Shown here: positions 11,248 to 55,600 of the stretch, piece by piece
Numbering within the stretch: position 1 is the first letter of the stretch
Layout: each line of letters opens with the position of its first letter
Source of the DNA: Chloroflexota bacterium
Lineage (GTDB): Bacteria; Chloroflexota; Anaerolineae; Anaerolineales; UBA11858
Direction of reading: 5' to 3'
NCBI GenBank assembly: GCA_043818215.1
Contig: JBDRGC010000127.1
Span: forward strand, 12,832-76,831
DNA: 64,000 bases
Program-made: the position numbers and the translations under genes
Notes under the pieces: model-generated
Seen by the model: the letters and a program-made list of their open reading frames with translations, nothing else
Told to the model about the DNA's origin: nothing
Databases searched by the model: none

Positions 11248-11249
11248 AT

Positions 11250-11540: not shown

Positions 11541-11604
11541 ATCTTCTCTGTTCTGACCTTGTCATATTTCTCGCTGATACGACTAATGCAAGTTTATCTT
11601 TATT

Positions 11605-11811: not shown

Positions 11812-11835
11812 ATCCCAATTATACCCCACTTGATT

Positions 11836-17433: not shown

Positions 17434-17447
17434 GGTATACTTGAAGC

Positions 17448-17819: not shown

Positions 17820-18201
17820 TTGGTTGCAATTTGCTCGTGAGGATCTCCGAGTAGCAGAATGGGCACTTGACGAGACAATTAATAATCAAGCTTGTTTTCA
17901 TTCGCAACAATGTGTGGAGAAATCTCTCAAAGCCTGGTTGGTGAGTCAGGGGAAAGCTCCGCCTCGCGTTCATCAGTTGGCGACACTGCTTTCATTGATC
18001 CCTGGTGAACTTGTAGATGATCTCATAGATGGTATTGAGCTTTTGGACCAATTTTATATCCCTACGCGTTATCCTGATGCGCTTGTAAGCTCGTTGCCTG
18101 ATGGTCCGCCAAGCGATCACCAAGCGAGGCATGCCGTAGTGACTGCTCGCAAAGTTCTCCAACGCGTCGAACAACATATTTCCACCCAACCATCCCGTTG
18201 A
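17803..18201 (+). CDS. HEPN-domain toxin (copy A)
   Basis: The FAREDLRVAE...FHSQQCVEKSLKA and IPTRYPD motifs are typical of HEPN. ATG at 17803. Confidence 0.75.
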   Translation: MSSATNWLQFAREDLRVAEWALDETINNQACFHSQQCVEKSLKAWLVSQGKAPPRVHQLATLLSLIPGELVDDLIDGIELLDQFYIPTRYPDALVSSLPDGPPSDHQARHAVVTARKVLQRVEQHISTQPSR

Positions 18202-18308
18202 TTCATCTCCCCTCACCCCTCACCCCTCTTCCCTCTCCAAATATCATCGCCATCGTCCAGGCCCGAATAGACTCTTCTCGCCTGCCGGGCAAAGTGCTGC
18301 TCGACATC
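18198..18308 (+). pseudogene. 5' fragment (~37 codons) of the SpsF-like cytidylyltransferase gene
   Basis: Near-identical to 20476-20586 (MIHLPSPL.PLPSPNIIAI.QAR.DSSRLPGKVLLDI). Similarity stops abruptly at 18308. Confidence 0.7.
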
Positions 18309-18654
18309 AGGGCGAGATACCCTGGCACCGCCCGCCATACCATCCAGGTACAGGACATCGTCCCGATACCTATGCAGGTACTGCGCACTTGCGCCGCACG
18401 CAGTGTAGGTGTGGAAACCTGTCCTGAGTGTATCGAAAGGTCTCGGCTATAGACCCTAACTTTTGAAGAGGATACAAAATTTTATTGTATTCCTTTACCC
18501 CTTCGGGGCACAGGTATGTGTTACTTCGTGCGCAGTGCCTGCATAGGTATACTTTGTGGTTGGCCCCTTTTTGGTTCCGGCCTGTCCCTGTGTATTTCGG
18601 GGGTATGTCCGGGTTAGAGTAGACTTGAAATAGATGTTTTGATATGCCGCTATT

Positions 18655-18981
18655 GTGCAGGAGGCGTTTATGTTAGTTGACACGCGATACGAACACGTAA
18701 TCATGGATGAAGCCAATGTGCCTATAATAACAGGGACAAATACTAAGGTAGTTGAACTTGTTTTGGATAATATTGCCTACGGTTGGAGTCCTGAAGAACT
18801 TCATTTCCAACATCCTGAGTTAACGTTAGGGCAGATATATTCGGCGCTATCTTACTACTGGGACCACAAAGAAGAGCTTGATCAAGACATCGAGCGTCGT
18901 CTTCAACGCGTCAACCATATTCGGGAAGCAGCGCAGCAACTACCCCTGGAAACCCGGTTGAAGACAGCGATGGCAGCCTGA
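18655..18981 (+). CDS. DUF433-domain protein (antitoxin-like)
   Basis: PIITGTNTKVVELV...GWSPEELHFQHPELTLGQIYSALSYY is the pattern of DUF433. The start could be 18670. Confidence 0.65.
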   Translation: MQEAFMLVDTRYEHVIMDEANVPIITGTNTKVVELVLDNIAYGWSPEELHFQHPELTLGQIYSALSYYWDHKEELDQDIERRLQRVNHIREAAQQLPLETRLKTAMAA

Positions 18982-19328
18982 TGGCGATCAAGTTTTACAT
19001 GGACCATCATGTGCCGCGCGCGATCACGAACGGCCTCCGGCTGCGTGATGTAAATGTGATAACTGCTTACGAAGATGGAACCAGCAGATTTGATGACCCA
19101 GACCTGTTGGATCGAGCGGGCGCATTAGGACGCGTGCTATTCACCCGCGATGATGATCTCCTCGTGGAGGCAGCCCGACGACAGCGAAGTGGCATTTCGT
19201 TTCAAGGTGTGATCTATGCTCATCAACTCCATGTCACCATAGGTGTTTGCATTCGTGATTTGGAAACCATTGCCAAGATTGGGGAATCTGACGATTTGAT
19301 GAGTGGAGTGATATTTTTGCCCCTTTAA
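18981..19328 (+). CDS. DUF5615-family PIN-like protein (toxin-like partner of DUF433)
   Basis: The KFYMDHHVPRAITNGLR...VLFTRDDDL pattern is present, and the start overlaps the DUF433 stop (ATGA-type overlap). Confidence 0.65.
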   Translation: MAIKFYMDHHVPRAITNGLRLRDVNVITAYEDGTSRFDDPDLLDRAGALGRVLFTRDDDLLVEAARRQRSGISFQGVIYAHQLHVTIGVCIRDLETIAKIGESDDLMSGVIFLPL

Positions 19329-19342
19329 AGTCGAATAACCTT

Positions 19343-19711
19343 TGGCCCTACGATGAGTACCACACCAGCGATGATAACCTTGACATAATCCACGAAGATA
19401 TGCTCCAGGGAGCCGCCGACGTGATCGAAGAAATCGTGCGAATTTATGCCAGCAACTACATCCCCAGGCGCACATTCCGCGGGCCGGTGTTTCTCTCCGG
19501 TCACGGGCTGTGGGTCGATTGGCGCGATAATTGGGAACTCAACCGCGCCATCGAAAAAATTATGATGCGCTTCGAGGGCCAGCACAGCATTTTCGACATC
19601 GCCGCAGACGTGGGTCTGGATTACTGGGTGGTGCGTGAATACGTCGAAAAATTTCGGGATAAGGCTCTTGTGAAAGCGCTGCCTATTCCCGGCGAGTCTC
19701 CGGGTTCATAG
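19343..19711 (+). pseudogene. 3' fragment (~122 codons) of the DUF4910-like gene
   Basis: Collinear with 17065-17433. By manual alignment about 6 of ~122 residues differ. It has no 5' part. Confidence 0.75.
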
Positions 19712-19725
19712 GGTATACTTGAACC

Positions 19726-20088
19726 ATGAGTACTTTACAGACCCTTGAACCAATTGAGATGGATTTGAATACATGGAAGGCTCGCCTGGAGTCCGAATTG
19801 GCGCGTTTTGTGGACTTAATTATCGAACATTTCTCGCCGAAGAAGATCATCTTATTTGGCTCATTCGCGGAAGGGAAACCGCGGATCTGGTCTGATATTG
19901 ATTTGGTAGTGATCAAAGAAACAGATGATCGCTTTCTGGATCGTTCGAAAGATTTACTTCCTTTACTGATGCCGCGTGTTGGCTTAGACCTCATTGTTTA
20001 CACGCCAGCAGAATTTGACCAATTATGCCAGGAACGTAAATTCTTCCAAGATGAAATCTTGGAAAAAGGGAAAGTGTTGTATGGGTAG
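19726..20088 (+). CDS. MNT-type nucleotidyltransferase antitoxin (copy B, diverged)
   Basis: LFGSFAEGKPRIWSDIDL motif. Clearly more diverged from copy A than the flanking segments are. Confidence 0.75.
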   Translation: MSTLQTLEPIEMDLNTWKARLESELARFVDLIIEHFSPKKIILFGSFAEGKPRIWSDIDLVVIKETDDRFLDRSKDLLPLLMPRVGLDLIVYTPAEFDQLCQERKFFQDEILEKGKVLYG

Positions 20089-20479
20089 CCCCACTGATTG
20101 GCTTTATTTTGCTCGTGAAGATCTTCGTGTGGCAGAATTGACGCTATCGAATGAGATTTACAACCAGGTATGTTTCCACTCTCAACAATGTTGTGAGAAG
20201 GCTCTCAAAGCCTGGCTTGCTCATCAAGGTATTGAATCGCCGAGAAAACATCAATTGAGTGTGCTATTGGCCCTTTCGACGATTGATATTTTTGCAGAGT
20301 TAGGTGGGGATATCGTTCGTCTTGATCGTTTTTACATTCCCACTCGCTATCCTGACGTGCTGGCAGGTTCACTTCCTGAGGGACTTCCAAATAAAGCAAA
20401 TGCCGAGGAAGCTATTGATACTGCTCGCAAAGTTCTCCACCGCGTCGAACAACATATTTCCACCCAACCCTCCCGTTGA
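20081..20479 (+). CDS. HEPN-domain toxin (copy B, diverged)
   Basis: FAREDLRVAE...FHSQQCCEKALKA and IPTRYPD motifs. The last ~19 residues are nearly identical to copy A. Confidence 0.75.
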   Translation: MGSPTDWLYFAREDLRVAELTLSNEIYNQVCFHSQQCCEKALKAWLAHQGIESPRKHQLSVLLALSTIDIFAELGGDIVRLDRFYIPTRYPDVLAGSLPEGLPNKANAEEAIDTARKVLHRVEQHISTQPSR

Positions 20480-21405
20480 TTCATCTCCCCTCACCTCTCT
20501 CCCCTCTTCCCTCTCCAAATATCATTGCCATCATTCAGGCTCGCATGGACTCATCACGCTTGCCGGGAAAAGTGCTGCTCGATATCGGCGGTCGTCCGAT
20601 GCTCCAGTGGGTCGTCGAGCGCACCCGCCGCGCCAAAACCGTGGACGAAGTCATCGTCGCCACCACCACCGACCCATCCGACGATGCCGTAGCCCAATTT
20701 TGCGAGGCCAAAGGTTACCCCGTCACCCGCGGCAGCATCCACGATGTGCTGGATCGCTACTACCAGACCGCCCGGCAATTCAAAGCCGACGTCATCGTGC
20801 GCATCACTGCCGATTGTCCGCTGATTGACCCCGCGCTGGTGGACGGGACGGTGTTCTCGTTATTTGAGATTGGAGATTGGAGATTGAAAGCCGAATCTCC
20901 AATCTCAAATCTCAAATCCCCGATTTTTGACTTCGTCGCCAACCGCCTCCCGCCTCCCTGGGGACGCACCTACCCCATCGGCCTCGACACCGAAGTTTTT
21001 ACATTCGATGCTCTGGAACGTGCCTGGAAGCGAGCTATCGCCAGACACCACCGCGAACATGTCACCCCCTATTTTTACGAAGACACTCCTGTCGATCATT
21101 TGAAATTCAGTGTGCAGGGATCGGAATTTTCCAGCGCCATGACACTTGATGGACTCCACATCGCCTTGCTCCACCACGACCCCGACTACGGCCGCCTGCG
21201 CTGGACGGTGGACACCCCCGCGGATTTGGAACTGGTGCGCGCTATTGTGGCCCATTTCGATAGCCGCGACGACTTCACCTGGCAGGATGTGCTGGCTATC
21301 TTCGAGCGCGAGCCGGAACTGGCGCAAATCAACGCCAGCGTGCGGCACAAGACACACTTGGATGTGGACGATAGGTCAGTAAATCAGGAAGCAGTAAATC
21401 AGTAA
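20476..21405 (+). CDS. cytidylyltransferase-domain protein (SpsF/PseF-like CMP-sugar synthetase family)
   Basis: IIQARMDSSRLPGKVLLDIGGRPML is the N-terminus typical of the SpsF/COG1861 family. The start codon is uncertain (TTG at 20476). It contains an in-frame array at 20866-20919, and its tail (NQEAVNQ) is array-encoded. Confidence 0.7.
   Translation: MIHLPSPLSPLPSPNIIAIIQARMDSSRLPGKVLLDIGGRPMLQWVVERTRRAKTVDEVIVATTTDPSDDAVAQFCEAKGYPVTRGSIHDVLDRYYQTARQFKADVIVRITADCPLIDPALVDGTVFSLFEIGDWRLKAESPISNLKSPIFDFVANRLPPPWGRTYPIGLDTEVFTFDALERAWKRAIARHHREHVTPYFYEDTPVDHLKFSVQGSEFSSAMTLDGLHIALLHHDPDYGRLRWTVDTPADLELVRAIVAHFDSRDDFTWQDVLAIFEREPELAQINASVRHKTHLDVDDRSVNQEAVNQ
20866..20919. repeat. in-CDS inverted heptamer array (GAGATTG x3 / AATCTCC-AATCTCA)
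   Basis: It encodes EIGDWRLKAESPISNLKS inside the cytidylyltransferase. Confidence 0.8.
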
Positions 21406-21588
21406 ATCAGGAAACCAGGAAACCAGGAATCAGTAGATCAGGATGCCAGGGAAGACTGATTTACTGATCTACTGATCTACTGATCTACTGATCTACTGAT
21501 TTACTGATCTACTGATTTACTGATCTACTGATCTACTGATTTACTGATTTACTGATCTACTGATCTACTGATCTACTGATCTACTAAC
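21376..21588. repeat. octamer arrays with inverted arms (CAGTAAAT/CAGGAAAC then CTACTGAT/TTACTGAT x~18)
   Basis: Read directly. It spans the stop of the upstream CDS and ends 3 nt before the next ATG. Confidence 0.9.
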
Positions 21589-28179: not shown

Positions 28180-29385
28180 ATGAAATTTCTCATCGCCGGC
28201 TTCGGCTCCATCGGACGCCGCCACTTTCGTAATTTGCTTGCTTTGGGTGAGCGTGACATTGTGTTCCTGCGCAGCAAGCGGAGCACTCTGCCCGATGCCG
28301 AGATAGCCGCTTTCCCCGTGGAGACTGATATTCAAGCTGCGCTGGCACACAAGCCGGATGCGGTGATTGTCTCGAATCCCACGTCGCTGCATTTGGATGT
28401 GGCCCTCCCGGCGGCGGAAGCGGGCTGCCACATTTTTTTGGAGAAGCCCATCTCCCATTCGATGGAGCGCGTGGACGAATTGCAGGCCGCAGTCCAGCGC
28501 GGGGGCGGGCAGGTGCTCGTCGGCTTCCAATTTCGCTTTCACCCCAGCCTGGGCCTCATCAAACAATGGTTGTCGGGCAACCACGCCCCACGCTCCACGC
28601 CTCACGCTCCACCCCCCACGCCCCATGCTCTACGCTCCACGCCACACCCCCCACGCCCCATGCTCCACGCCTCACGCTCCACGCCCCACGCTCCACGCTC
28701 CACGCCCCACCACACCCCACGCCCCACGCACCACTCCCCACTCCCCGCGCCCCCAATCTCCAATCTCCAATCTCTAATCTCCAATCCCCACTCCCCCATC
28801 GGCCGGCCCCTTTCCGCCCGCGCCCACTGGGGCGAATATCTCCCCGGCTGGCATCCCTGGGAAGATTATCGGCAGGGGTACAGCGCGCGGGCAGATTTGG
28901 GAGGCGGCGTGATTCTGACACTTTGCCATCCTTTGGATTATCTGCGCTGGTTGTTGGGTGATGTGACAGGATTGTGGGCGTTTACGGGAAAGGCCGGCGA
29001 TTTGGAGTTGGCAGTCGAAGATACTGCTGAAATCGGGCTTCATTTCGCCAGCGGAGTGATTGGCAGTGTGCATCTGGATTATAATCAACGCCCCCCGTCC
29101 CATCACTTGGAAATTGTGGGAACTCATGGAACCATCCGCTGGGACAATGCCGACGGCGCGGTGCATATCTATCGTGCCTCTTCTGATGAATGGGGCATTT
29201 ACCCGCTTCCGCAGGGGTTCGAGCGCAACCAATTGTTCCGGGATCAGATGAAGCATTTCTTAGCGGTCGTGGGTGAGGGCGAGCAGCCTGTCTGTACTCT
29301 CGAAGATGGTGTGTGGGCATTAAGGCTGGCATTGGCCGCGCACGAGTCGGCTCGAAAAGGGGAAGTTATTACTTGGGCAGCGTGA
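28180..29385 (+). CDS. Gfo/Idh/MocA-family oxidoreductase carrying a ~70-aa array-encoded insertion
   Basis: The N-terminal Rossmann domain (MKFLIAGFGSIGRRH, EKP motif) and the C-terminal Gfo-type domain are separated by the low-complexity stretch HAPRSTPHAP...PISNLQS. Confidence 0.75.
   Translation: MKFLIAGFGSIGRRHFRNLLALGERDIVFLRSKRSTLPDAEIAAFPVETDIQAALAHKPDAVIVSNPTSLHLDVALPAAEAGCHIFLEKPISHSMERVDELQAAVQRGGGQVLVGFQFRFHPSLGLIKQWLSGNHAPRSTPHAPPPTPHALRSTPHPPRPMLHASRSTPHAPRSTPHHTPRPTHHSPLPAPPISNLQSLISNPHSPIGRPLSARAHWGEYLPGWHPWEDYRQGYSARADLGGGVILTLCHPLDYLRWLLGDVTGLWAFTGKAGDLELAVEDTAEIGLHFASGVIGSVHLDYNQRPPSHHLEIVGTHGTIRWDNADGAVHIYRASSDEWGIYPLPQGFERNQLFRDQMKHFLAVVGEGEQPVCTLEDGVWALRLALAAHESARKGEVITWAA
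28580..28796. repeat. in-CDS heptamer arrays (CACGCCC/CACGCTC ~24 units, then CCAATCT ~5 units)
   Basis: Read directly. It is open in all three forward frames and two reverse frames (ORF track 28180.., 28367.., 28566.., 28559..28921, 28602..28799). Confidence 0.9.
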
Positions 29386-33198: not shown

Positions 33199-34251
33199 AT
33201 GCCCGATTTACCTCGACTTTTCGATCTGACAGACCGCGTTGCCATCGTCACCGGCGCCGCCGGCCTGTTGGGAACTGAATTCTGCCGCACACTGGCCGAG
33301 GCTGGGGCGGCGGTTACGATTGCGGATATGGATGGGGACTCTGCCGCTGATGTGGCGGATACCCTCACCCGAGGCGGATTCCGCGCCCTGGGGCTTAAAA
33401 CCGACGTGACCGCGCCGGATTCCGTTACCCGAATGGTGGCTGCTACCCTGGGGGCATTTGGGCGTCTCGACATCCTGGTTAACTCCGCCGCTCTCGATCC
33501 CAAGGTCAGGGAGCAGGAAGCAGGAAACCAGGAATCAGGAAACCAGGGATTAGGGACTAGGGATCAGGGACTAGGGACTAGGGATCAGGGATCAGGAAAC
33601 CAGGGATCAGGAAACCAGGGATCAGGAAACCAGGGATCAGGAAACCAGGGATCAGGAAACCAGGGATCAGGAAACCAGGGATCAGGAAATCAGGGATCAG
33701 GGACTAGGAATCAGGAACCGGGAGAATCCCTAACCCCTAACCCCCTAACCCCTAACCCCTTGTCCCTCACCTTCGAAGACTACCCCCTCGAACTCTGGCA
33801 GCAAGCTCTGGACGTCAACCTGACGGGGGCTATGCTATGCTGTCAAGCCGCCGTGCGGCCCATGTTGGAACAGGGCCGCGGGGTCATCATCAACATCGCT
33901 TCCATCTACGGCCTCGCCGCCCCCGACCAGCGACTCTATCAGCGTGAAGGGCAGTTCCCGCAGTACAAGCCCGCCTATTACACCGTCACCAAAGCCGGCG
34001 TGCTCGGTCTCACCAAATATCTGGCGGCCTATTATGCTGGCAAGAATATCCGCGTCAATGCCCTGACTCCCGGCGGCGTCTACAACGGCCACGATGACGA
34101 GTTCGTCAAAGCCTACTCCGCCCGCGCCGTCATGGGCCGCATGGCCGAAAAAGACGAGATGAACGGCGCCCTCCTCTTCCTGGCCTCCGAGGCCTCCAAA
34201 TACATGACCGGCGCTAATCTCATCGTCGATGGGGGCTGGACAGCGTGGTGA
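33199..34251 (+). CDS. SDR-family oxidoreductase carrying an ~85-aa array-encoded insertion
   Basis: TGAAGLLG, NSAA and YxxxK (YTVTK) motifs. The insertion (GSGNQ)n lies right after the NSAA strand. ATG at 33199. Confidence 0.75.
   Translation: MPDLPRLFDLTDRVAIVTGAAGLLGTEFCRTLAEAGAAVTIADMDGDSAADVADTLTRGGFRALGLKTDVTAPDSVTRMVAATLGAFGRLDILVNSAALDPKVREQEAGNQESGNQGLGTRDQGLGTRDQGSGNQGSGNQGSGNQGSGNQGSGNQGSGNQGSGNQGSGTRNQEPGESLTPNPLTPNPLSLTFEDYPLELWQQALDVNLTGAMLCCQAAVRPMLEQGRGVIINIASIYGLAAPDQRLYQREGQFPQYKPAYYTVTKAGVLGLTKYLAAYYAGKNIRVNALTPGGVYNGHDDEFVKAYSARAVMGRMAEKDEMNGALLFLASEASKYMTGANLIVDGGWTAW
33506..33762. repeat. in-CDS arrays: CAGGAAAC/TAGGGAC words, a 15-nt (7+8) unit CAGGGATCAGGAAAC x~8, then CCTAACC
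   Basis: Read directly. The 15-nt composite period keeps the frame and gives (GSGNQ)n. Confidence 0.9.
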
Positions 34252-34352
34252 TTCCAGTGTTCAGTATTCAGTTTTCAGTAAAACCGAACACCGAATGCCG
34301 ATCACTGAACACTGAACACTGGACACTGAACACTGAATACTGATGACTGAAA
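34252..34352. repeat. inverted heptamer arrays (TTCAGTG/TTCAGTA then CACTGAA)
   Basis: Read directly, immediately after the SDR stop. Confidence 0.85.
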
Positions 34353-34396
34353 CCCCCGCCCTCACCCCCGCCCGCGGCGGTTGGACGGCTTGGTAA
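34343..34396 (+). pseudogene. orphan 5' end (13 codons + junction) of the NeuA-like cytidylyltransferase gene
   Basis: ATG ACT GAA ... GCC CGC GGC GG encodes MTETPALTPARGG, matching LIPARGG of the intact gene at 37205-37225. It diverges after GCGGCGG. Confidence 0.6.
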
Positions 34397-34529
34397 AAAG
34401 AGCGTTCAGTGCCGGGGGGGGGGTATAATCAAGTATCCGATTCAAGAGGAAAGACACGGATGCGAGGGTGGAAAATGAATTGGCGCAATACAATGTAGTA
34501 TTGGCTTTGCAGCTTGGAGGTTTGGCGTT

Positions 34530-34889
34530 ATGAGTACACTTGATTTGCCAACAACTCTGACGAAGGAGATTCGATGGGAAGCAGAGACCGCTGGAATGTC
34601 AGTGGCGGATTTGCTAGGAGATGCAATTTACCATTACAAGTTAGTATTACAACGCCGCAAGATCAACGCGGAAGCCACTTGGTGGAATAGCGCATCTTCC
34701 GAGATACGTGACATCTACCAGGGGGAATACGTCGCGATTCACTGCCAACAAATTGTGGACCACGACGTTGATCGAGCAGCGCTCTATGACAGAGTGAGAA
34801 AGAAGTACGAAGACGCGGCTGTGCTCATTACCCCGGCCCGTGGAATTCCAACGCTTCGCATCTTAAGCCCTCGCCTGGAACGTTTATGA
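34530..34889 (+). CDS. DUF5678-like small protein (antitoxin-like partner of the aspartic protease)
   Basis: The YQGEYVAIHCQQIVDHD pattern is present, with a 4-nt overlap with the downstream gene. Confidence 0.45.
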   Translation: MSTLDLPTTLTKEIRWEAETAGMSVADLLGDAIYHYKLVLQRRKINAEATWWNSASSEIRDIYQGEYVAIHCQQIVDHDVDRAALYDRVRKKYEDAAVLITPARGIPTLRILSPRLERL

Positions 34890-35293
34890 ACATACCTTAT
34901 GATCCCTCGTACTGGCCGCCCTTTCCGGTTTTAGAAATTTCCCTGGCTCTGCGAGAGCAGCGACCTCAGGTTGGGCCTCTGCTTGCCCTGGTCGATACAG
35001 GCGCAGATGGGACTTTTATTCCCATCACGCATATCAAAACTTTGAGAGCGCCTGTGAGCGGACAGATGATCGTTCATCCGCAGTTTGGCAGCCCATACGT
35101 AGCACATACGCATACATTGGATGTTTTAGCCGGATCAATTCGGCTTTCCGCAATAGAGATTGTAGGAGATGACACGGGAAACGAGATTATTCTGGGTCGT
35201 AATCTGCTCAATAAGTTGGTGATGCTGCTAGATGGGCCGCAGGCTCAAACCGGCGTTTGGGAAAGCCGCCCGGATATTCACTGGCGGAAATAA
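34886..35293 (+). CDS. retropepsin-like (clan AA) aspartic protease
   Basis: ALVDTGADGTFIP contains the D-T/S-G catalytic triad, and the later IILGRNLL flap/closing motif is present. Confidence 0.6.
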   Translation: MNIPYDPSYWPPFPVLEISLALREQRPQVGPLLALVDTGADGTFIPITHIKTLRAPVSGQMIVHPQFGSPYVAHTHTLDVLAGSIRLSAIEIVGDDTGNEIILGRNLLNKLVMLLDGPQAQTGVWESRPDIHWRK

Positions 35294-35377
35294 GATAAAG
35301 GACACGGATGCGAGGGTGGAAAATGAATTGGCGCAATACAATGAACGCATCCCAGGAGTAATTGTTGGAGGTGTAGG

Positions 35378-35650
35378 ATGAAAAGAGTATTGATGTTTCC
35401 GATGTTTCGGTATGTAAAAGCTGCTTTGAGTCAGGCGGAATATGAGCGCAATGAGGATGGCGTCATCATTGCCCAGATAACGAACGCATCTGGTTTTTAC
35501 GCCCAAGGGGACACTTTCGAGGAAGCCCGCGAGAACTTGCGAGACGTAATCGAAGGCAATGTAGTATTGGCTTTGCAGCTTGGGTTGGAGATTCCGGCTA
35601 TCGAGGGGATAATCATTGAGGAACAAAATGTCGAGGCTGTCGCCGCTTAA
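35378..35650 (+). CDS. hicB: HicB-family antitoxin (second locus)
   Basis: GVIIAQITNASGFYAQGDTFEEARENLRDVIE is the pattern of HicB/UPF0150. Confidence 0.65.
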   Translation: MKRVLMFPMFRYVKAALSQAEYERNEDGVIIAQITNASGFYAQGDTFEEARENLRDVIEGNVVLALQLGLEIPAIEGIIIEEQNVEAVAA

Positions 35651-35852
35651 GCCCCATCAGGTCATTCACAAATTACAGAAGCTGGGCTATGAGGGGCCGT
35701 ATCCAGGAGGCCGTCACGTTCGCATGGTTCACGAGGAAACAGGGCAAATCGTTCCTATACCTATGCACAAGGGCAAGGATGTTAGCGTTGGGCTGATTCG
35801 GGCTATCATCCGTCAGGTTGGCATTACGCCCGAAGAGTGGAAGGAGTTGTAA
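35628..35852 (+). CDS. hicA: HicA-family toxin (second locus)
   Basis: The KPHQVIHKLQKLGY...GGRHVRMVH pattern is present. ATG at 35628 preferred over 35616. Confidence 0.7.
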   Translation: MSRLSPLKPHQVIHKLQKLGYEGPYPGGRHVRMVHEETGQIVPIPMHKGKDVSVGLIRAIIRQVGITPEEWKEL

Positions 35853-35982
35853 GGTTGAGAAAATCACAATATTAACATCCAATCTCCAATCTCCAGTCCC
35901 CAATCTCCAATTACCAGGTTCTGGTCCTCATCCCTGCCCGCGGCGGCTGGACGATGTAGTGAGGCAGAATGCATCGGGGAAC

Positions 35983-36327
35983 ATGAATATGAAGCTTCGC
36001 GATCTCGTCAATCGAGTTAGTATCGACCCTCGCAAACTAACAGAATACGCGTTACACCCCGATCACCCAAGAGGTGGTCACAAAGCGCGTGTATTTGAGG
36101 CGGCACTGGGATATAATCAAAGCAACTATCAATCCCTGCTTGACCAAATCGCGGATGAAGCCCTGGAATCTGAAGTGATACCAGGACAGGTTGATCAATT
36201 TGGGCAACGGGTCTGTGTTGGTTTGGAAGTTACAGGTGTGGAAGGCCAACGAGTGATTGTGCTAAGTGTTTGGATGATAGTGTCGCATGGTAGCGAAGCT
36301 CGTCTGGCCACATTGTATCCAAAGTGA
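35983..36327 (+). CDS. DUF6883-like protein
   Basis: 114 aa from the ATG at 35983. The KLTEYALHPDHPRGGHKARVFEAALG pattern is recalled for DUF6883. Confidence 0.5.
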   Translation: MNMKLRDLVNRVSIDPRKLTEYALHPDHPRGGHKARVFEAALGYNQSNYQSLLDQIADEALESEVIPGQVDQFGQRVCVGLEVTGVEGQRVIVLSVWMIVSHGSEARLATLYPK

Positions 36328-36336
36328 GAAGAGCTT

Positions 36337-36690
36337 ATGTCCGATCCAGAACTTTTTGATGTAATAGAATTACTCACAGATGTGCCTGAACAAAACCTGC
36401 GCGCAGGTACTCAGGGTACCATTGTGCATCAATATTCCGATGAAATTTTTGAAATCGAGTTCACCAACACTGAGGGAGAGACGTTGGCCTTGTGTGCGCT
36501 TCCATTTCGGCAGTTTATTGTCGTCTGGCAATCGGAGTATCAACGATGGGTACCAGTCGTTGAGCAACTTGTCCAAATAGTTGCTCGCTTGCCAGAAAAA
36601 GCTGGGACAGAAGTGCTCGACTTTGCACGATTTATCAGCGTTCGCACTGAACACCGTCACCCCACCCGCGTAGAACGTGTAGCTGCATAG
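36337..36690 (+). CDS. DUF4926-like protein
   Basis: FDVIELLTDVPEQNLRAGTQGTIVHQY..EIFEIEF is the pattern recalled for DUF4926. It is paired with the upstream gene. Confidence 0.5.
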   Translation: MSDPELFDVIELLTDVPEQNLRAGTQGTIVHQYSDEIFEIEFTNTEGETLALCALPFRQFIVVWQSEYQRWVPVVEQLVQIVARLPEKAGTEVLDFARFISVRTEHRHPTRVERVAA

Positions 36691-37065
36691 ATCCCTTATC
36701 CCTGGTAGTCCCCAAGATTGGCGGAGCATCCGGTACCAATCACGCGTACAGATAGCCAACGTGATAATATTATCCAATTGGCAGATTTTGTAGCCGGGGC
36801 AACCTACCAAAAACACATCCGAGGCAATTGTGTGTACACAGACCTTTTCGCCGAACGAGTGGTAGTGGAACGCACCATCCAATGGCACCCAAAATAAAAA
36901 AGGACAGGGATCCCGAGGGGCGTTTTAACCTGATCTTGTGTCAGGTGGGCCACGGTAATCGCGACCCCGCCGCACTCAGCCTTACTCCCTGTCATTGCTT
37001 ATAGTCTACTACAAAATAAGACAGAGGCAAACAGCAAAAGGGGTGAGAAAATCACAACATTAACA

Positions 37066-37190
37066 TCCAATCTCCAATCTCTAATCTCTAATCTCCAATC
37101 TCCAATCCCCAACCTCCCATGTACAATCCCCAATCCCCAATCTCCAATCTCCATTCTCCAATCTCCATTCTCCATTCTCCAATCTCCAAT
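37066..37190. repeat. heptamer array (CCAATCT and variants, ~17 units)
   Basis: Read directly. It contains the only in-frame ATG (37119) of the NeuA-like ORF. Confidence 0.9.
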
Positions 37191-37931
37191 TACCAGGTTC
37201 TGGCCCTCATCCCCGCCCGCGGCGGATCGAAATCCATCCCCCGCAAGAATATCATCGACTTTGCCGGCCACCCGCTGATCGCTTACAGTATCGCCGCAGG
37301 ACTGGCCGCCGAGACTGTGACGCGGGTGATCGTCTCCACCGATGACGATGAGATCGCCGCCATCTCCCGCCGCTGCGGGGCCGAGACTCCCTTTCTGCGT
37401 CCTGCGGAACACTCTCTCGACAACACCCCCGACCTGCCCGTCTTCCGGCAGGCCCTGGAATGGCTGGCCGACAACGAAGGCTACTGCCCGGACATCGTCG
37501 TCCAACTGCGGCCCACTTCCCCTTTCCGTCGCGTTTGGCATATCGACCAGGCTGTCTTGCGGCTCATCGAGCACCCCGAAGCCGACGCGGTGCGCACCGT
37601 CTGTGTGCCCTTCCAGAACCCCTTCAAAATGTGGCGCATCGCCCCCGACGGGTTAATGCAGCCCCTCGGAACCGAGCTGGGCATCCCCCGCGAGCCATAC
37701 AACCAGCCCCGGCAAGCCCTCCCCGAAGTCTACTGGCAGACCGGCTACGTCGATGCTGCCTGGGCCGACACCATTCTCTCGAAGAATTCCATGACCGGGG
37801 ACGCAATCCTACCCCTGGTCATCGACCCCTCCGAATGGGTGGACATCGACTCTCCCAATGATTGGCGCAGGGCGGAGAGACTGTTGGAGAGCGGGGAGGT
37901 TACTTTGGATGATCTAGGTTTTTCTATTTAG
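37119..37931 (+). CDS. acylneuraminate cytidylyltransferase family (NeuA/LegF/PseF-like CMP-nonulosonate synthetase)
   Basis: LIPARGGSKSIPRKNI N-terminal motif and the CTP_transf_3 layout. The first ~25 codons are array-encoded, so the true start is uncertain. Confidence 0.8.
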   Translation: MYNPQSPISNLHSPISILHSPISNYQVLALIPARGGSKSIPRKNIIDFAGHPLIAYSIAAGLAAETVTRVIVSTDDDEIAAISRRCGAETPFLRPAEHSLDNTPDLPVFRQALEWLADNEGYCPDIVVQLRPTSPFRRVWHIDQAVLRLIEHPEADAVRTVCVPFQNPFKMWRIAPDGLMQPLGTELGIPREPYNQPRQALPEVYWQTGYVDAAWADTILSKNSMTGDAILPLVIDPSEWVDIDSPNDWRRAERLLESGEVTLDDLGFSI

Positions 37932-38322
37932 GAATCAGTAGGTCAGTAGATCAGTAGATCAGTAAATCAGGGATCAGTAGATCAGTAAATTAGTAAATCA
38001 GTAGATCAGTAAATCAGGAATCAGTGGATCAGGGAGCAGTAGATCAGGAATATAATCAGGGTTTCCTGATTTCCTGATTTCCTGGTTTCCGGATTTCCTG
38101 ATTTACTGATTTCCTGATTTACTGATTTACTGATTTCCTGATTTCCTGATTTCCTGGTTTCCTGATTTCCTGATTTCCTGGTTTCCTGATTTCCTGGTTT
38201 CCTGGTTTCCTGGTTTCCTGATTTCCTGGTTTCCTGGTTTCCTGATTTCCTGGTTTCCTGGTTTCCTGGTTTCCTGATTTCCTGGTTTCCTGGTTTCCTG
38301 GTTTCCTAGTTTCCTAGTTTCT
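37931..38322. repeat. largest array in the window (~390 bp): CAGTAGAT/CAGTAAAT arm then TTTCCTGA/TTTCCTGG arm
   Basis: About 48 octamer units can be read directly, with an orientation switch near 38055. It generates the spurious ORF 38127..38411. Confidence 0.9.
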
Positions 38323-38375
38323 TGTCGTGGTAGAATGTATCTACATTTGTGGGCACATTCTACCGGGAGGTCGAA

Positions 38376-38627
38376 ATGATTGCTGTTGGAATACGTGAAT
38401 TGAAACAGCAAACCAGCGAGTTGATCCGTCTGGTGCGCGAAGAAGGAAGAGAACTCCAGGTTACTTATCGCGGCGATGTTGTGGCCCTCGTGGTTCCCGT
38501 GACTCGCGCCACATCACCGGATGCTGAAGCTGCCTGGTCCAGTCTGGATGTGCTGGCTGCGGAGATTGGGGCGTGCTGGCCTGCTGACGTTACCAGTGTG
38601 GAAGCCGTAGCTGAGGGCCGCGCGTGA
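38376..38627 (+). CDS. Phd/YefM-family antitoxin
   Basis: The MIAVGIRELKQQTSELIRLV...VTYRGDVVALVVP pattern, with GGGAGG upstream of the ATG at 38376. Confidence 0.7.
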   Translation: MIAVGIRELKQQTSELIRLVREEGRELQVTYRGDVVALVVPVTRATSPDAEAAWSSLDVLAAEIGACWPADVTSVEAVAEGRA

Positions 38628-39043
38628 GTGGCTACGTGGTAGTAGATGCCAGTGTATGGGTCGCGCGTATGATCGATCAAGACGTTTTTCATGCCATCAG
38701 CCGTCAATGGCTGGACGAGCAACGCACCAACGGGATGCGTTTTATTGCCCCCACGCTATTACTCGTCGAAGTGGTCGCCGCTATTTCCCGCCGCACGGGG
38801 GACAGAGGATTAGCACAACGCGCCGTGGATATATTGGAAAACCTGCCCGATTTGCGGCTGGTGGATATGGACCGCAGCCTCGTGCAAATTGCCATTCGCG
38901 TAGGGGTTGACCTGGGGGTGCGCGGTGCAGACGCGTTTTACATCGCCATTGCGCAACAGCTACACCTCCCCCTTACCACCCTGGATGTGGATCAGCGTAC
39001 CCGCGCCGGCCAGATAATAGAGACATGGAAGATAACGGGTTGA
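38624..39043 (+). CDS. vapC: VapC-type PIN-domain toxin
   Basis: VVVDASVWV start and the later conserved acidic residues (LLLVEV, GADAFYIA). 4-nt overlap with the antitoxin. Confidence 0.75.
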   Translation: MSGYVVVDASVWVARMIDQDVFHAISRQWLDEQRTNGMRFIAPTLLLVEVVAAISRRTGDRGLAQRAVDILENLPDLRLVDMDRSLVQIAIRVGVDLGVRGADAFYIAIAQQLHLPLTTLDVDQRTRAGQIIETWKITG

Positions 39044-39076: not shown

Positions 39077-39262
39077 GGGGACTGGTAAATTGGGGAGTGG
39101 TAAATTGGTAAATTGGGGATTGGTAAATTGGTAAACTGGGGACTGGTGATTGGTTCCCAGCTTACCAACCTACCAATCTACCAATCTACCAACCTACCAA
39201 CCTACCAATCTACCAATCTACCAATCTACCAATCTACCAACCTACCACTCCCCAATTCCCAA
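39077..39262. repeat. octamer arrays with inverted arms (TGGTAAAT/TGGGGACT then CCAATCTA/CCAACCTA)
   Basis: Read directly, ending 5 nt before the kinase ATG. Confidence 0.9.
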
Positions 39263-40683: not shown

Positions 40684-40790
40684 CTCGCCATTCGCCATTC
40701 GCCACTCGCCACTCGCCATTCGCCATTCGCCACTCGCCATTCGCCATTCGCCCCTCGCTATTCGCTATTCGCCACTCGCCACTCGCCCCC
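40684..40790. repeat. heptamer array (CATTCGC/CACTCGC, ~15 units)
   Basis: Read directly. It extends the ORF-track ORF 40658..41809 upstream of the real start. Confidence 0.9.
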
Positions 40791-50792: not shown

Positions 50793-51269
50793 TTGAAGGT
50801 AAATTATATGAACAGATTATTCTCTGGCTCAACGCATGTAGATATTCAAGGAAAACAGGTATTAATATTCCACAGCCTTAATGCAGAGGTTGCAGAATAC
50901 GCAGTAATTGGCTTCGAAAACTATCCTGTGCAAATCCTTGACTACCGGGACTTTGGGTTAGCTGCAATCAACTCCCTTTTGGCGACCAACAGATTTCACG
51001 ATTTCGCTCCAAAGTTCAATCATCCTGCACATACGACCATTGTTAAATCAGAGCAGGGAAAGATACAAATTGAGCTTAGGAATACAGATGAACAGAACCC
51101 ATCTCACATGCTTAGGATTGCAATTGGTATTAAGGAAGCAACTATCCCCGAATATACTTTTTTGCTAAAAGAACTTCAACCATTTAAGAACAAAGTTGCT
51201 TTACTTTCTATATATGAACGTCCTTTTCCAAACGAATTTCCTGCTTACTACCCTTCTTGTGATACGTAA
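50793..51269 (+). CDS. hypothetical protein (within insertion)
   Basis: A 158-aa AT-rich ORF with no recognisable motifs. Confidence 0.3.
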   Translation: MKVNYMNRLFSGSTHVDIQGKQVLIFHSLNAEVAEYAVIGFENYPVQILDYRDFGLAAINSLLATNRFHDFAPKFNHPAHTTIVKSEQGKIQIELRNTDEQNPSHMLRIAIGIKEATIPEYTFLLKELQPFKNKVALLSIYERPFPNEFPAYYPSCDT

Positions 51270-51340
51270 TTTTCCACTTCTGTACACTCAATGTCATTGA
51301 GCGAAGAAAAAGGGTACGGTGCGACAAAAAGAGAGCATCC

Positions 51341-52282
51341 ATGAGCAACAACCATCGAGTCTATCGCAGCATCCGAAATGCCACCAAGCAATTCTATCCA
51401 AATAAACCCGAATGGAATTTGGCTCGCCAATCGAACCCGTTGGCGGAGTTGGCAACAGTGATCGCTCAAAGCAATCGCAGACAATTGCCTGCGATTGCCT
51501 GGAAGTTTCCTGTTAGCACCAAGCCGGAGAGCCAGGTGACGAAATATTGCTGCCGTATACAGAACGAGCTGACTGATTTGGAAATCCACTATTTGCCCTT
51601 TGTCAGAGAATTTCTGGCTGCGCTGGCCGATATTCGCACGTTGGTCTTGGTGATGGATGATCGTGAAGTGGGGCACAATTGTCCGGCTCTGATGCTCAGC
51701 GTGGTTTACAAAGGTCGAACTTTGCCTATTGCGTGGATCGTTGCCAAAGGCAGCCACGGTAATTATCCTGCCGCAAATCATGCCGCCTTAGTCCATAAAG
51801 CCCACCAACTTATCCCCGCAGGAGCAGATGTCATTTTCTTAGATGATATGGACTTGGACAGCACTCCCCTGCAAACCACGATCAAGGCGTATGGATGGGC
51901 TTATGTCTGCCGCGCGGCAGAGGACGTCATCCTTCAAGAAGATGGGGTAGAGTTCTCGTTCAAAGACCTTATGGTCACTCCCGGAGATTGCCTCAGTCTG
52001 CCGCAAGTATTGCTCGCTCAACAAGGTTATAGGCCAGTCCATGCGATTGCCCGGTGGCAAAAAGGCTGCCAAGAACCACTCTATTTGATCACCAATTTAG
52101 AATTGGCAGAAGAAGCTTGTTACTGGTATGCCAGGCGGCTCCGAATCGAAACCTTTTTTTCTGATGAAAAAAGCCGTGGATTTCACATTCACAAGAGCCA
52201 TCTTTCTGACCCAGATCGATTAGCCCACCTAATGATAGCCGCTTGTTTAACCTACATTTGGATCATTTACCTGGGCGTTTAG
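51341..52282 (+). CDS. IS4/IS5-superfamily DDE transposase (possibly truncated)
   Basis: Acidic residues occur in LVMDDRE and IFLDDMD contexts, and the Y-x2-R-x3-E-x6-K signature (YARRLRIETFFSDEK) is typical of DDE_Tnp_1. The ORF ends soon after it. No terminal inverted repeats were found. Confidence 0.6.
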   Translation: MSNNHRVYRSIRNATKQFYPNKPEWNLARQSNPLAELATVIAQSNRRQLPAIAWKFPVSTKPESQVTKYCCRIQNELTDLEIHYLPFVREFLAALADIRTLVLVMDDREVGHNCPALMLSVVYKGRTLPIAWIVAKGSHGNYPAANHAALVHKAHQLIPAGADVIFLDDMDLDSTPLQTTIKAYGWAYVCRAAEDVILQEDGVEFSFKDLMVTPGDCLSLPQVLLAQQGYRPVHAIARWQKGCQEPLYLITNLELAEEACYWYARRLRIETFFSDEKSRGFHIHKSHLSDPDRLAHLMIAACLTYIWIIYLGV

Positions 52283-52641
52283 GAATGAGAATTAAATAAC
52301 TTACCCATTCAAGCAATCACGGTAGCGCCGGTTGAGTAGCGCAGGCACATGCTTTTCGTGCCGTAGCGTATACCTATGCAGGTATACCGTCCCGGTATCT
52401 AGGGACTGCGCACCTGCACTGCATGTGGCGCAAGTGTCGAAACCCAGCGGATTACAGGAAACTAGCCCATTTTCAAGCCCCGTTTGGTTTCTGGACGATC
52501 CATCGATTGTGTTGCTGTTCTACGATGGGGAAAACTATCTCCGTTGGGAGCCATCGACGGAGTGGGAACTGCTCAACCCGAGGCTGTATCCATTTGCGGT
52601 CTAAACCCCGGTGCATGCAAGGATGAAGTGATATTCATTTC

Positions 52642-55600
52642 TCAAGCTATGGGCCATTCGGTTATCACTGCATCTATCTCGGCCATCAGGCGGATGGTTT
52701 CGCGCAAAGCTTTGACAATACACCCATAATGGCGCACGTCGTCGAAGGTGAGGGCGCGCTGGGCTTTTTTGCGATCTTTGAGCCATTTATCGAGTACCTG
52801 GTAGCCGCCGATCTGGAATTCCCACACTTGTGGCTCGATGCCAGCGAAGTACTGCTGGTTGTTGATGTAGACGCGGCCTTGCTCCAAGTGAGTATCGCTG
52901 CCGGGAGCGGGTTCACCTGGAGCGTAGTAACGCGGGTAACGGCTGACCGTCAAATCTGAGCCGGAGACTGGGTAGCTGACGCCAGTTTTACGTAGGGACT
53001 CGGATTCCATCAGGTGCAGAGCGACCAATTGCCCGCCTTTTTCGGCCAGGGTGCGGAAGAGGGCCACATCACTTGTCAGGGGCAGACGGGGGAAATCAAT
53101 CTTTAGAAATTCAGCGTAGCGTTCGCGGAAGGTGGGCGAGTGGAAGACGGCGTAGGCGTAGTCGAAGATGTCTTCAGGGCCGAAGTTTTCTTGCAGGTCG
53201 CCGCGGCCGTTAGGGGTGAAGGCTAAACTCAGTTTATCTTTCGTATAGGCCAGGAACTTTCGTGAGAGATTAGGACAGCGGGTTTTGTATGGTTCCTGTT
53301 CTTCAAACAGACTCAAAATGAACGGCATGCTGCCCCCGCTGCTGAGAGTTTCTATCTTTTTTCTCGTGTTGTTATAGAGATAGAGGGGAAATAGAACAGG
53401 AGTTCCTCGATTACTAAAAAACGTTCTGTTATCAGCAATTACATTCGTAGCAATAAAGTGATTATGTGGAGGACCAACTACTTGTCGTATGGTTAATAAT
53501 GCCATGTTATTGTGCAACATGTGCTGAGATACATCCATTCTTGGGCGGTCGACAAAACCAACAGAATAAAAAATTGATCTAATGTCAAAAGGACGATAGA
53601 GATATTGACTGAAATGTTCGTCCCAGCCAGTTTGATTTTGAAAACTATCCCGTGCCTCGGATAACTTCCAATCTCGAGTGTCATTCAGTTCAAAGCGATC
53701 TTTAATTATCTCATCAGAAAATTTCTCATCGCGAAATATTTTGATTCTTTCTCGTAATGCGTCTTCGTCAAAATCAATCACAAAATGATCCCTGTGAGTT
53801 TTGACACCGCTGGAATGCACAGGGAAAATATCGGTCACGCTCCAGCCGCGCTGGTATTCATCGTACAAGTTAAAATCTTTGGGCACGAAGAAGTAGTGCG
53901 GGGCTTGGGGGGTTAGTTCTTCCCAGTCGGTAGTGCTGAGGTCGTGGGTGTTGAGGGCGTTGTATTTATCAGCGCGGCGGCCCCACAGGTCAGCGTAGTA
54001 GACATCTGCCAAGACCTCCGAGGTTTCCGAGACCTCGGAGGTCTTACCTTGGGGCAACTTCACCGCCAAAATAATCCCCACGCCCTGACGAATGTCGAAT
54101 ACGTTTTCGTCTTTGCTGCCGTCGGAAGCGGTTTCTCCCATCAGGGCATTGCCGTGCAGGTTGAGCAGGTAAATCTCATCGAAGGTTTTCATCAATTCCT
54201 GGCGCATGCCGCGGTGAATCAGCCCGGAGAGATAGGAGTGATTGGTGATCATCCCCACCAGCCCGTAGCCAGTCTGTTCGATGCGCTCGTGAGCAAAACG
54301 TAAAAACTTGATGTAATCATCCGAAAGGGGCTGGATATTGCGCTCATCGCGCACGGCCTTTTTGTAACGCTTCATCAACTGCTCGATGTATTCTCCCTTG
54401 TTGGCCGAACTGACCGAGTAAGGCGGGTTGCCCAGTACAACCATAATGGGCTTATCTCCCTTGATTTCAGCGGCTGCGTTGGCTTCCTCGGTAATATAAC
54501 GCGCAAAGGGGGCAACCTCCTCTTGAAAAATAGGTTTGCCCAAAGTGTTGGTCAGGTAAACACCCAACCGCTGTTTTCCAGCAAATTGATAGCCTAATTT
54601 TTGAAGCTGAATCCCCAACTTCATATGCGCCACCGCGTAGGGAGCCATGAGCAACTCGAAACCAAAGATGCGCGGCAAAAGCTGGTTTTTAGCGTAATCG
54701 TCCCACATCCCGGCCAGCCCCATAACTTCCAGCGACTCGTAAACGCGCTGGATCACGAAATACAAAAAGGTAGCCGTACCCACCGCTGGGTCGAGGATTA
54801 GGGTGTCCCGGTCGGCCAGTCCATCGGGTCGGCCAAAGCGTGTTTTAAGCAAATAATCCAGCGAGCGCACGATATACGAAACCACTGGCTCCGGAGTGTA
54901 ATACACACCGCGTGCCTGACGCATTCGCGGGTCGTAGGCAGCCAAAAAAGTCTCGTAGAAATGCACCACCGGGTCTTCCTGGCGGGTGCTTTTGCCGAAA
55001 TCACGCAGAACTGCGTCCATATCGGCGTTAGCCAGCAGATGGGCAATATCATCTACCAACCAGGCGATGCTGTCATCCAAGTCTGGCCCGGCAATTTCGT
55101 TGAATAGCTTACGCAAGAAAGGATTGGTTTTGGGGAGATTCCAGGCCGCTTCGCGACGGGTGAATTCCTGAGGAGCGGGTACTCGCACCCGCGCGGCGAA
55201 CAACCCATAGGTGATGGTTTGGGCGTACATATCGGCGAACTGGGCCACATCTAGGTCAGGTATCAGCGTTTCACGGAAGACGTTCATTTGAGCGTGAAGC
55301 GCACCCGATGCGCTCTCCTGCTCGAAGGCTTCGGAGAGCAGTTCGCGTAACATACGCGCCAGACCAGCCATCCGCCGCGCCAGTTCCTGCGGGTCGCCAA
55401 TGACCGGGGTCTGTTGGGTCAAAAACCGGTTGAGTAGGTTGGCGGTTTGCTGTATGCCCCCTGGTTCGGTACGAATTTGATGGTCTCTGGTCAACCTGCC
55501 CAGCTGGACTGTCTCCCGCAGATCGCCGTTTACATACCAATGGAATTCCAAGTAATCAGTCAGTATGAGATTGTTGAGCGAAGTCCGATAACGGGTTATT

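Follow-up and report, generated by a model that had tools for sequence, protein, structure and literature searches.

Three spacer alleles, two with toxin-antitoxin cargo, lie head to tail between an SDR gene and a NeuA-like gene of Chloroflexota and were probably stacked by microhomology-assisted recombination

Integrase-driven genomic islands, such as those of tRNA and tmRNA genes or phage e14 in icd, restore the end of the gene that they target and build up tandem arrays, and they carry an integrase and private att arms. Head-to-tail arrays of one- or two-gene modules that can be reordered are also formed by the gene cassettes of integrons, including the toxin-antitoxin (TA) cassettes of chromosomal integrons. 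Neither a dedicated recombinase nor element ends are involved in homology-facilitated illegitimate recombination (HFIR), described in the transformation of Streptococcus pneumoniae, Acinetobacter baylyi and Pseudomonas stutzeri, in which one homologous flank is combined with one illegitimate join, typically at a GC-rich microhomology of 3–10 bp, and foreign or allelic DNA is added beside the anchor (review PMC3240628). The flexible genomic islands of Alteromonas, of the replacement and the additive kind, are reported to comprise a variable slot, enclosed by conserved genes of the glycosylation cluster, in which cargo differs among lineages and is exchanged via flanking core genes (PMC4898812). 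The locus compared with these systems here lies in a window of 64 kb, i.e. the whole stretch of 64,000 nucleotides analysed from contig JBDRGC010000127.1 of a Chloroflexota bacterium. It occupies the interval between two sugar-pathway genes, one for a short-chain dehydrogenase (SDR) and one for a NeuA-like cytidylyltransferase, where three alternative intergenic spacers, two of them with TA genes, follow one another head to tail.

The array consists of units 0, 1 and 2 (Table 1). The 11-nt core GCCCGCGGCGG, belonging to the NeuA head, occurs exactly at 34370–34380, 35936–35946 and 37215–37225, with no fourth exact copy in 64 kb (at ≤1 mismatch the window holds 13 matches versus 3.1 expected), and, as the original prediction had it, the last copy alone reads through into the cytidylyltransferase (GGSKSIPRKN; Pfam CTP_transf_3). 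Its claim that the two longer segments end alike was likewise borne out: the 22-mer GAGAAAATCACAAYATTAACAT is present in the window only at 35857 and 37045 (0 expected), and the 74-nt right ends (35878–35951 and 37157–37230), each composed of a CCAATCT array and CCAGGTTCTGGyCCTCATCCCyGCCCGCGGCGG, are 91% identical. Copy 1 is indeed the ancestral NeuA start; it is preceded by an in-frame ATG at 34343 and ATGACYGAA... is the usual start among relatives; the relic head of unit 0 reads MTET(L>P)AL(I>T)PARGG, the relatives beginning with ATGACYGAA...CTCGCCCTCATCCC. The cores are not ordinary members of the CCAATCT repeat family, because they represent NeuA coding sequence, the CCAATCT array being of a genome-wide repeat type.

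The left borders also consist of gene sequence. The DNA behind copies 1 and 2, formerly described as yTGGACG followed by unrelated DNA, is in fact made of the last codons and the stop of the SDR gene (GGWTAW-stop and GGWTM-stop), the end of which, DGGWT[ATV]W-stop, is conserved among relatives. In the NeuA frame, copy 1 continues as GGT TGG ACG GCT TGG TAA (G-W-T-A-W-stop), i.e. with the same peptide and stop as the upstream SDR end GGC TGG ACA GCG TGG TGA, and copy 2 as GGC TGG ACG ATG TAG TGA. The pattern GGNTGGACNGCNTGGTRA is matched exactly only at the true SDR end (34234–34251) and at 34379–34396, and with 3 mismatches at 35945–35962. Alignment with true SDR ends extends the homology of tail 1 with the 3' flank of the window's SDR gene to GTTCAGT at ~34411. 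Tail 2 aligns with locus L093, where the true SDR stop directly precedes a DUF6883 gene, and its counterpart in a related array, L163, is TTG ACG ACG TGG TGA, pointing to an ancestor ending in WTTW-stop. The two tails differ at 5/15 positions, each resembling a different single-cargo arrangement of other lineages. Since the left ends are SDR gene tails, every segment forms a full unit made up of an SDR tail, a spacer and a NeuA head.

The array is best read as a tandem stack of three SDR–NeuA spacer alleles, probably formed by a homologous crossover combined with a microhomology join in an HFIR-like manner and reshuffled afterwards. As part of the same reading, each allele would probably have brought the last SDR codons on its left and the first 13 NeuA codons on its right.

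The spacer was compared among loci obtained by NeuA-based scans, 80 from species-representative genomes and 80 from metagenomes, all Anaerolineales-like. Of the 152 loci holding both genes, 134 have the SDR gene directly followed by NeuA (usually MTEVLALIPARGGSKS), thus providing the empty-site alleles (SDR directly before MTE.LALIPARGGSKS) that the original prediction had proposed to look for; six have spacers of 131–350 nt and 12 have longer ones. The alternative-cargo alleles it had likewise called for were found among the longer spacers, which hold single cargoes starting right after the SDR stop: a DUF6883 and DUF4926 pair as sole cargo of L093 (50% and 55% amino acid identity to the cargo of unit 2), a HicB homologue at the same site in L130 (72%), membrane proteins in L007 and L180, TumE-type pairs in both L011 and L083 and, elsewhere, a GNAT acetyltransferase-like protein, a protein of ~210 residues and a large transmembrane protein (PMT_2-like, as judged by eye). 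The SDR–NeuA spacer is a recurrently filled variable slot of the surface-polysaccharide cluster, which is mostly empty and sometimes occupied by one cargo, be it a TA-like pair or a modifying or membrane enzyme. Homologues of the window cargoes were found in none of the 80 genome loci and, among the metagenome loci, in L093 and L130 only. P0003 (DUF4926, 66%) has the context of an unrelated MNT/HepT locus and P0132 is an ordinary empty-site allele. Each unit of the array matches a single-cargo spacer arrangement of other lineages. The differences between relic heads and the live head are mainly synonymous, or of the kind MTETL versus YQVL, so that the relic heads appear to be allelic forms rather than copies of the live head.

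A second, independent join was found in the closest NeuA relative, L174 (91% amino acid identity), and in L175, which has the same structure; L174 keeps the synteny of sulfurylase, SDR, NeuA and Phd/PIN genes. The 2.9-kb spacer of L174 contains, in this order, the gene of a 375-aa membrane protein, a head/tail relic, the gene of a 346-aa membrane protein and the live NeuA. The relic is a NeuA head (AAAATTCTTGCCCTTATCTCCGCCCGC) fused to a 132-nt SDR 3' end (...DGGWTA and two stops) not at GG/W, as in the window, but at CCGCCCGC, where NeuA codons for Pro-Ala-Arg meet SDR codons for Ser-Ala-Arg, 44 codons before the stop; compared with the window join, this crossover is offset by 8 nt on the NeuA side and 117 nt on the SDR side. 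The relic head differs from the live head mostly by synonymous substitutions, and the relic tail is ~80% identical to L174's own SDR tail and 86% identical to the SDR of the window. The two cargo proteins are ~20% identical to each other, the second being 57% identical to the spacer protein of L007. Neither the chimeric PARGG-W join nor full head duplicates were seen outside this lineage in the 160 loci; the partial head of L174 came to light only via its SDR-tail copy.

Both positions are the ones at which the two genes most often share a short word. All words of at least 7 nt common to the SDR end (last 150 nt) and the NeuA beginning (first ~70 nt) were counted in 155 pairs of these genes. 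The commonest was CCGCCCGCG (SDR −126, NeuA −6; 29 loci), corresponding to the L174 join, and the second was GGCGGCT (SDR −15, NeuA 0; 27 loci), corresponding to the window join. The words are shared because Gly-Gly (GGCGGC) and Ala-Arg (CCGCCCGCG) motifs are encoded in both genes, at the 3' end of SDR and at the 5' end of NeuA, and the junctions are therefore predicted by an accidental similarity of conserved codons. With GGCGG(C/T) and CCGCCCGC, the joins have microhomologies within the 3–10 bp range of HFIR.

From these comparisons we infer the donor, the route of recombination and the direction in which the array grew as follows. A different spacer allele from a related strain would enter the cell and undergo an ordinary homologous crossover in a flanking gene at one end and, at the other, an illegitimate join at a GC-rich word common to the SDR tail of the donor and the NeuA head of the resident allele, or else the reverse arrangement, anchored in SDR. 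By such HFIR, or an equivalent unequal exchange, the incoming allele would be added beside the resident one instead of replacing it, leaving a dead NeuA head/SDR tail fusion and supplying a fresh gene end, and repeated rounds would give the stack. The stacked heads (23–33 nt; 91 nt if the common right end is counted in) would then serve as direct repeats, through which recombination could delete, duplicate or reorder units. Addiction to the TA genes may, speculatively, favour addition over replacement; in L174 stacking is seen with non-TA cargo as well.

Several observations weigh against this mechanism. No donor genome was found with a single-cargo allele bearing the exact right end of the window. 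The live genes of the window have GGGGGC in the SDR tail and GGCGGA in the NeuA head, so that the 7-nt word is deduced from the relatives and from the joins. The two joins of the window and the two of L163 all lie at the same nucleotide, which requires either two independent hits on one word of 5–7 nt or later copying. Finally, a second stacked locus of the same topology at 16093–21405 (Table 1), with the near-identical flanks and diverged centres that are the pattern of two stacked alleles, speaks for the mechanism, but its joint contains an additional ~1 kb of DNA and is no simple microhomology join.

The common nucleotide of the four joins is at the same time the one point that remains in favour of the site-specific, integron-like footprint originally predicted, i.e. 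for non-autonomous cassettes inserted at the core in NeuA codons 9–13 by a recombinase encoded elsewhere, which would resemble integron cassettes or the islands that regenerate the ends of tRNA genes or icd. The units have been re-assorted exactly at that nucleotide, they are discrete modules with TA cargo, and the join of L174 likewise lies within the same GC-rich core of NeuA, 14 nt long. As in integrase-driven islands, insertion was repeated at one gene end, a replacement end was supplied and direct repeats of the target core flank each unit, so that three NeuA heads are present, only the last of them live; in these respects the predicted tandem accretion with regeneration of the gene's 5' end was correct. 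Against such a system, the left ends are SDR tails and hence DNA of a flanking gene; if a unit were excised from an allele with one cargo, SDR and NeuA would be left fused and both genes destroyed; and the crossover is not fixed, lying at GGCGG/N in the window and L163 and, with a 132-nt SDR tail, at CCGCCCGC in L174 and L175; microhomology alone predicts both positions. No inverted repeat or hairpin is present at either join, and attC-like folding of both joins on both strands was no better than that of shuffled sequences (z +0.29 to −1.50). The units carry small TA-like genes only, and no integrase was found in them or in the 64-kb window, nor was a tyrosine or serine recombinase found by Pfam among its ~50 ORFs, nine large ones of which have no Pfam match; on this point the original prediction was right. 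The ends sought elsewhere, as it had suggested, were absent from the rest of the window and ~170 related loci except for the sister array L163; the 22-mer, present twice in the window, was absent from the 80 genome and 80 metagenome loci, no DNA scan of the whole collection having been made for the ends. Taken together, a site-specific system is very unlikely.

The array accordingly differs from integrase-driven islands in the lack of a detected integrase, in having the 3' end of a neighbouring gene as its other border and in a crossover that varies between lineages. It shares with integron cassettes the one- or two-gene, head-to-tail, reorderable modules and the TA cargo, but has no intI or attI in the 64-kb window and no attC hairpin, its borders are flanking-gene sequence, and at least unit 1 appears to bring a TATAAT box of its own. 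A further possibility is that the unit, enclosed by NeuA heads once a head/tail join exists, is a portable cassette that passes as a discrete module from genome to genome and position to position, moved by very short homology arms or by a recombinase acting in trans at the GC-rich core CCCGCCCGCGGCGG, with one-way accretion driven by addiction. In that case the ends of two housekeeping genes would have given rise to an integron-like cassette system that lacks an integrase, which we regard as quite unlikely.

Reshuffling of the stack is documented by the locus L163 (GCA_030592935.1), which carries the closest DUF4926 homologue (84% amino acid identity) and has the same cassettes at 88–92% nucleotide identity in a different order. 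It reads head-0 relic, tail 2, DUF6883, DUF4926, a hicB remnant, DUF5678 and a truncated retropepsin gene, followed by DNA like that of the window from 36777 onward, a right end and head, tail 1, TATAAT, hicB, hicA and a further TumE-like pair. The window thus combines head 0 with tail 1 and the right-end head with tail 2, and L163 has head 0 with tail 2 and the right-end head with tail 1, the base following GGCGG travelling with the tail (T for tail 1, C for tail 2). No new illegitimate events are needed for this permutation, which is accounted for by exchange between the repeated heads. Head 0 has decayed differently in the two arrays (L>P and I>T in the window, ATG>ATA and R>C, CGC>TGC, in L163), which marks it as a fossil. 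Other breakpoints also lie at short overlaps, namely ATTGG..TAGCCGG where the retropepsin gene is truncated, CAATG in one hicB remnant and AGTATTG in another. General short-homology recombination is evidently active in these arrays.

The same microhomology logic would fit an in-place tandem duplication, in which unequal sister-strand exchange at the SDR/NeuA microhomology was followed by divergence and by independent gain and loss of cargo. The right ends of units 1 and 2, with their 91% identity, do resemble sister copies, and at another place the window does contain TA genes duplicated in tandem (BrnTA ×2 at 78%). The cargoes of the units are unrelated, though, the tails match different single-cargo arrangements elsewhere, the relic and live heads differ as alleles do, the tail relic of L174 is nearer to the SDR of another lineage than to its own, and a homologous cargo swap inside a copy would have had a left arm of only 15 nt. 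Duplication in place with later divergence is therefore the less likely origin and, taken by itself, unlikely, the cargoes and tails of the units being of separate ancestry and the relic ends having the look of alleles.

The array is a real structure and no assembly accident, because two further assemblies (L081 and L082) match 33588–38047 at 99.75–99.9% identity and the diverged L163 has the same cassettes. Both other assemblies call the 270-aa cytidylyltransferase product identically, and their contigs terminate inside the flanking repeat arrays. Tandem alleles with repeated flanks could result from a mis-traversed strain bubble, by which an assembler concatenated strain variants of one spacer, and all the sources are metagenome assemblies with contigs breaking in such repeats. 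Such an artefact is nevertheless hardly credible in view of the agreement of three assemblies, join overlaps of only 5–9 nt, far below the k-mer size of any assembler, the stop and missense mutations that the relic heads and tails bear unlike live alleles, and the relative that keeps the joins in a different order.

According to the best reading, nature here provides an instance of alleles stacked additively with the help of microhomology, which is a variation on known processes and not a new kind of system. HFIR is known from laboratory selections and is usually accompanied by a deletion of similar size; the process proposed for the array is deduced from natural genomes, is net-additive and serial (two or three rounds), takes its microhomology from conserved codons of two flanking genes and retains a head/tail fossil of each round. 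Compared with the Alteromonas islands, alleles that would normally replace each other here sit side by side with their join fossils kept. Literature searches yielded no description of this arrangement, only the HFIR background and a paper on heptamer repeats. If the reading is true, such arrays, found in an uncultured Chloroflexota lineage, are footprints, natural and datable, of a type of recombination otherwise known mainly from laboratory transformation assays; small TA modules can accumulate between conserved genes without mobile-element machinery; and conserved codons of adjacent genes can become sites of recombination by accident. Cassettes stacked at one site, with gene ends regenerated but no integrase, would then not necessarily imply a new recombinase system, and the fused gene-head/gene-tail fossils offer a simple signature for finding more cases.

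Table 1. Features of the SDR–NeuA array and of the second stacked locus (positions in the window)
Feature	Position	Strand	Description
SDR (short-chain dehydrogenase) gene	33199–34251	+	Pfam adh_short_C2 1e-48; ends ...DGGWTAW-stop, W codon at 34237
Unit 0	34237–34380	+	SDR tail / spacer / NeuA head, cargo-free
Unit 0, empty spacer allele	34252–34380	+	inverted ACTGAAC/GTTCAGT heptamer arrays and ancestral NeuA head relic
Unit 1	34381–35946	+	SDR tail / spacer / NeuA head
Tail 1, SDR 3' end relic	34382–34396	+	TGG ACG GCT TGG TAA = WTAW-stop; joined to head 0 at GGCGG/T
TATAAT box	34424–34429	+	same GGTATAATCA after SDR stop in L011, L130
hicB 5' leader copy A and hicB fragment	leader 34444–34495; internal 27-nt piece 34491–34517	+	fused through 5-nt overlap CAATG
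DUF5678 gene (cargo 1a)	34530–34889	+	Pfam; dN/dS 0.38 vs L163
Retropepsin-like aspartyl protease gene (cargo 1a)	34886–35293	+	Pfam
hicB leader copy B (cargo 1b)	35292–35343	+	repeat of copy A
hicB (cargo 1b)	35378–35650	+	Pfam UPF0150 5e-18
hicA (cargo 1b)	35628–35852	+	Pfam HicA 6e-16
Right end copy 1	35853–35946	+	unique 22-mer GAGAAAATCACAATATTAACAT, CCAATCT array, relic NeuA head (QVL V LIPARGG)
Unit 2	35947–37225	+	SDR tail / spacer / NeuA head
Tail 2, decayed SDR 3' end relic	35948–35962	+	TGG ACG ATG TAG TGA; joined at GGCGG/C
DUF6883 gene (cargo 2)	35983–36327	+	Pfam 6e-31
DUF4926 gene (cargo 2)	36337–36690	+	Pfam 6e-23
Unit 2, unannotated DNA	36691–37040	+	ORF 36718–36897, no Pfam match
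Right end copy 2	37041–37225	+	22-mer, CCAATCT array of ~18 units (37066–37190), live NeuA head
NeuA-like cytidylyltransferase gene	37119–37931	+	Pfam CTP_transf_3
Second stack, geneA (DUF4910/M28-like)	16093–17433		first gene of second stack, then MNT/HEPN
Second stack, relic 5' head of geneB (cytidylyltransferase)	18198 to ~18310		
Second stack, DUF433/DUF5615	18655–19328		
Second stack, relic 3' tail of geneA	from ~19331		repeat 19331–19630 95% nt identical to 17053–17352; then second MNT/HEPN (~71%)
Second stack, live geneB (cytidylyltransferase)	20476–21405		

Gene and cargo identities were assigned by Pfam scans of the ~50 ORFs of the window, and all the cargo annotations given earlier (DUF5678, retropepsin-like, HicB/UPF0150, HicA, DUF6883 and DUF4926) hold. 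As adjacent small genes of known families, hicB and hicA clearly match a type II TA system; the DUF6883/DUF4926 and DUF5678/retropepsin genes form pairs of TA-like organisation with a putative function of this kind. In comparison with L163, dN/dS is 0.32–0.35 for hicB/hicA, 0.28–0.39 for the cargo of unit 2 and 0.28–0.39 for the cargo genes overall, which are under purifying selection, the heads and tails showing nonsense and missense decay. A search with DUF5678 gave just three homologues at E≤1e-15 among 5.8 billion proteins, the query's own cluster included, and no further arrays. An exact look-up of the 114-aa DUF6883 product (ATG 35983) returned no record, the gene callers placing the start so as to give 112 aa. 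Within the unannotated DNA of unit 2, 36777–37092 is conserved in L163, where it is joined to the truncated retropepsin gene, and right end copy 1 is found there at 1954–2040.

The TATAAT box is presumably the promoter of unit 1, although the scan for sigma-70 promoters did not call the one at 34424. The sequence GGTATAATCA occurs at 34421–34431 in the window, at 5013–5023 in L011 and at 427–437 in L130, and GTTATAATCA at ~2078–2090 in L163; in L011 (TumE pair) and L130 (HicB) the SDR stop stands immediately before it, and in the window and L163 (HicBA unit) it lies ~25 nt past the stop of tail 1. Different cargoes may thus have a promoter box in common at the left edge of the slot. Two distinct internal hicB deletions precede DUF5678, one at 34444–34517 in the window (CAATG) and one at 1047–1100 in L163 (AGTATTG). 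L163 also contains a third gene, which matches DUF5678 in its first ~25 codons only, is unrelated from there on and is paired with a TumE-like gene, which suggests a swap of N-terminal antitoxin modules.

The sole canonical start of the NeuA-like gene, ATG 37119, lies inside the heptamer array, the customary start beside VLALIPARGG being lost, and 24 repeat-encoded residues consequently precede VLALIPARGGSKS. As the repeat unit is 7 nt, one unit gained or lost would shift the NeuA frame, and the array at the start could possibly act as an on/off switch; the number of heptamers is equal in all three assemblies. The SDR gene, too, contains an in-frame repeat array of ~255 nt (7/15-nt units) at 33506–33760, which encodes a GNQGSG... 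loop. The SDR is 351 aa in the window region scanned, 306 aa in L174, where the expansion is shorter, and 273 aa in L179 and L180.

Tandem arrays of 7- and 8-nt repeats (CCAATCT, ACTGATYT, GGTTTCCT, TACCAATC, TCGCCAT...), often as inverted pairs, occupy nearly every intergenic region of the window, e.g. 21455–21585, 28581–28790, 37066–37190, 38060–38321, 39163–39247 and 40685–40787, and metagenome contigs break there. Heptamer arrays of a similar intergenic kind (TAACTGA) are described in Beggiatoaceae, cyanobacteria and Bacteroidetes, with Chloroflexi unmentioned (PMC4679880).

The surface-polysaccharide cluster of the window comprises NeuB, two cytidylyltransferases, glycosyl-, sulfo- and methyltransferases and a Wzm/Wzt-type exporter, and its TA load is very high: MazF (1100–1621), PIN (4500–5066) and HicA (8279–8506), two BrnTA, two MNT/HEPN and one DUF433/DUF5615 module, the SDR–NeuA array and Phd/PIN. 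The two BrnT/BrnA(CopG)-like modules lie in tandem at 10686–11829 (− strand), are 78% identical over 289 nt with a spacing of 564 nt, and no flanking gene-end copies were seen beside them. The Phd/YefM-like and PIN pair (38349–39043), located directly 3' of NeuA between 8-nt repeat arrays, is 87% identical at the nucleotide level in L174, and its conservation there makes it older than the SDR–NeuA stacks. GC3 is ~0.39–0.52 for the cargo genes, ~0.62 for hicA and the PIN gene (38624–39043) and ~0.65–0.77 for the biosynthetic genes. Classical mobile or defence DNA was seen at one place of the window only, 50793–55863, where a low-GC3 ORF (50793–51269, no Pfam match) is followed by an IS4-type DDE transposase (51341–52282), 14 kb from the array, and a type ISP restriction-modification enzyme (52642–55863, − strand).

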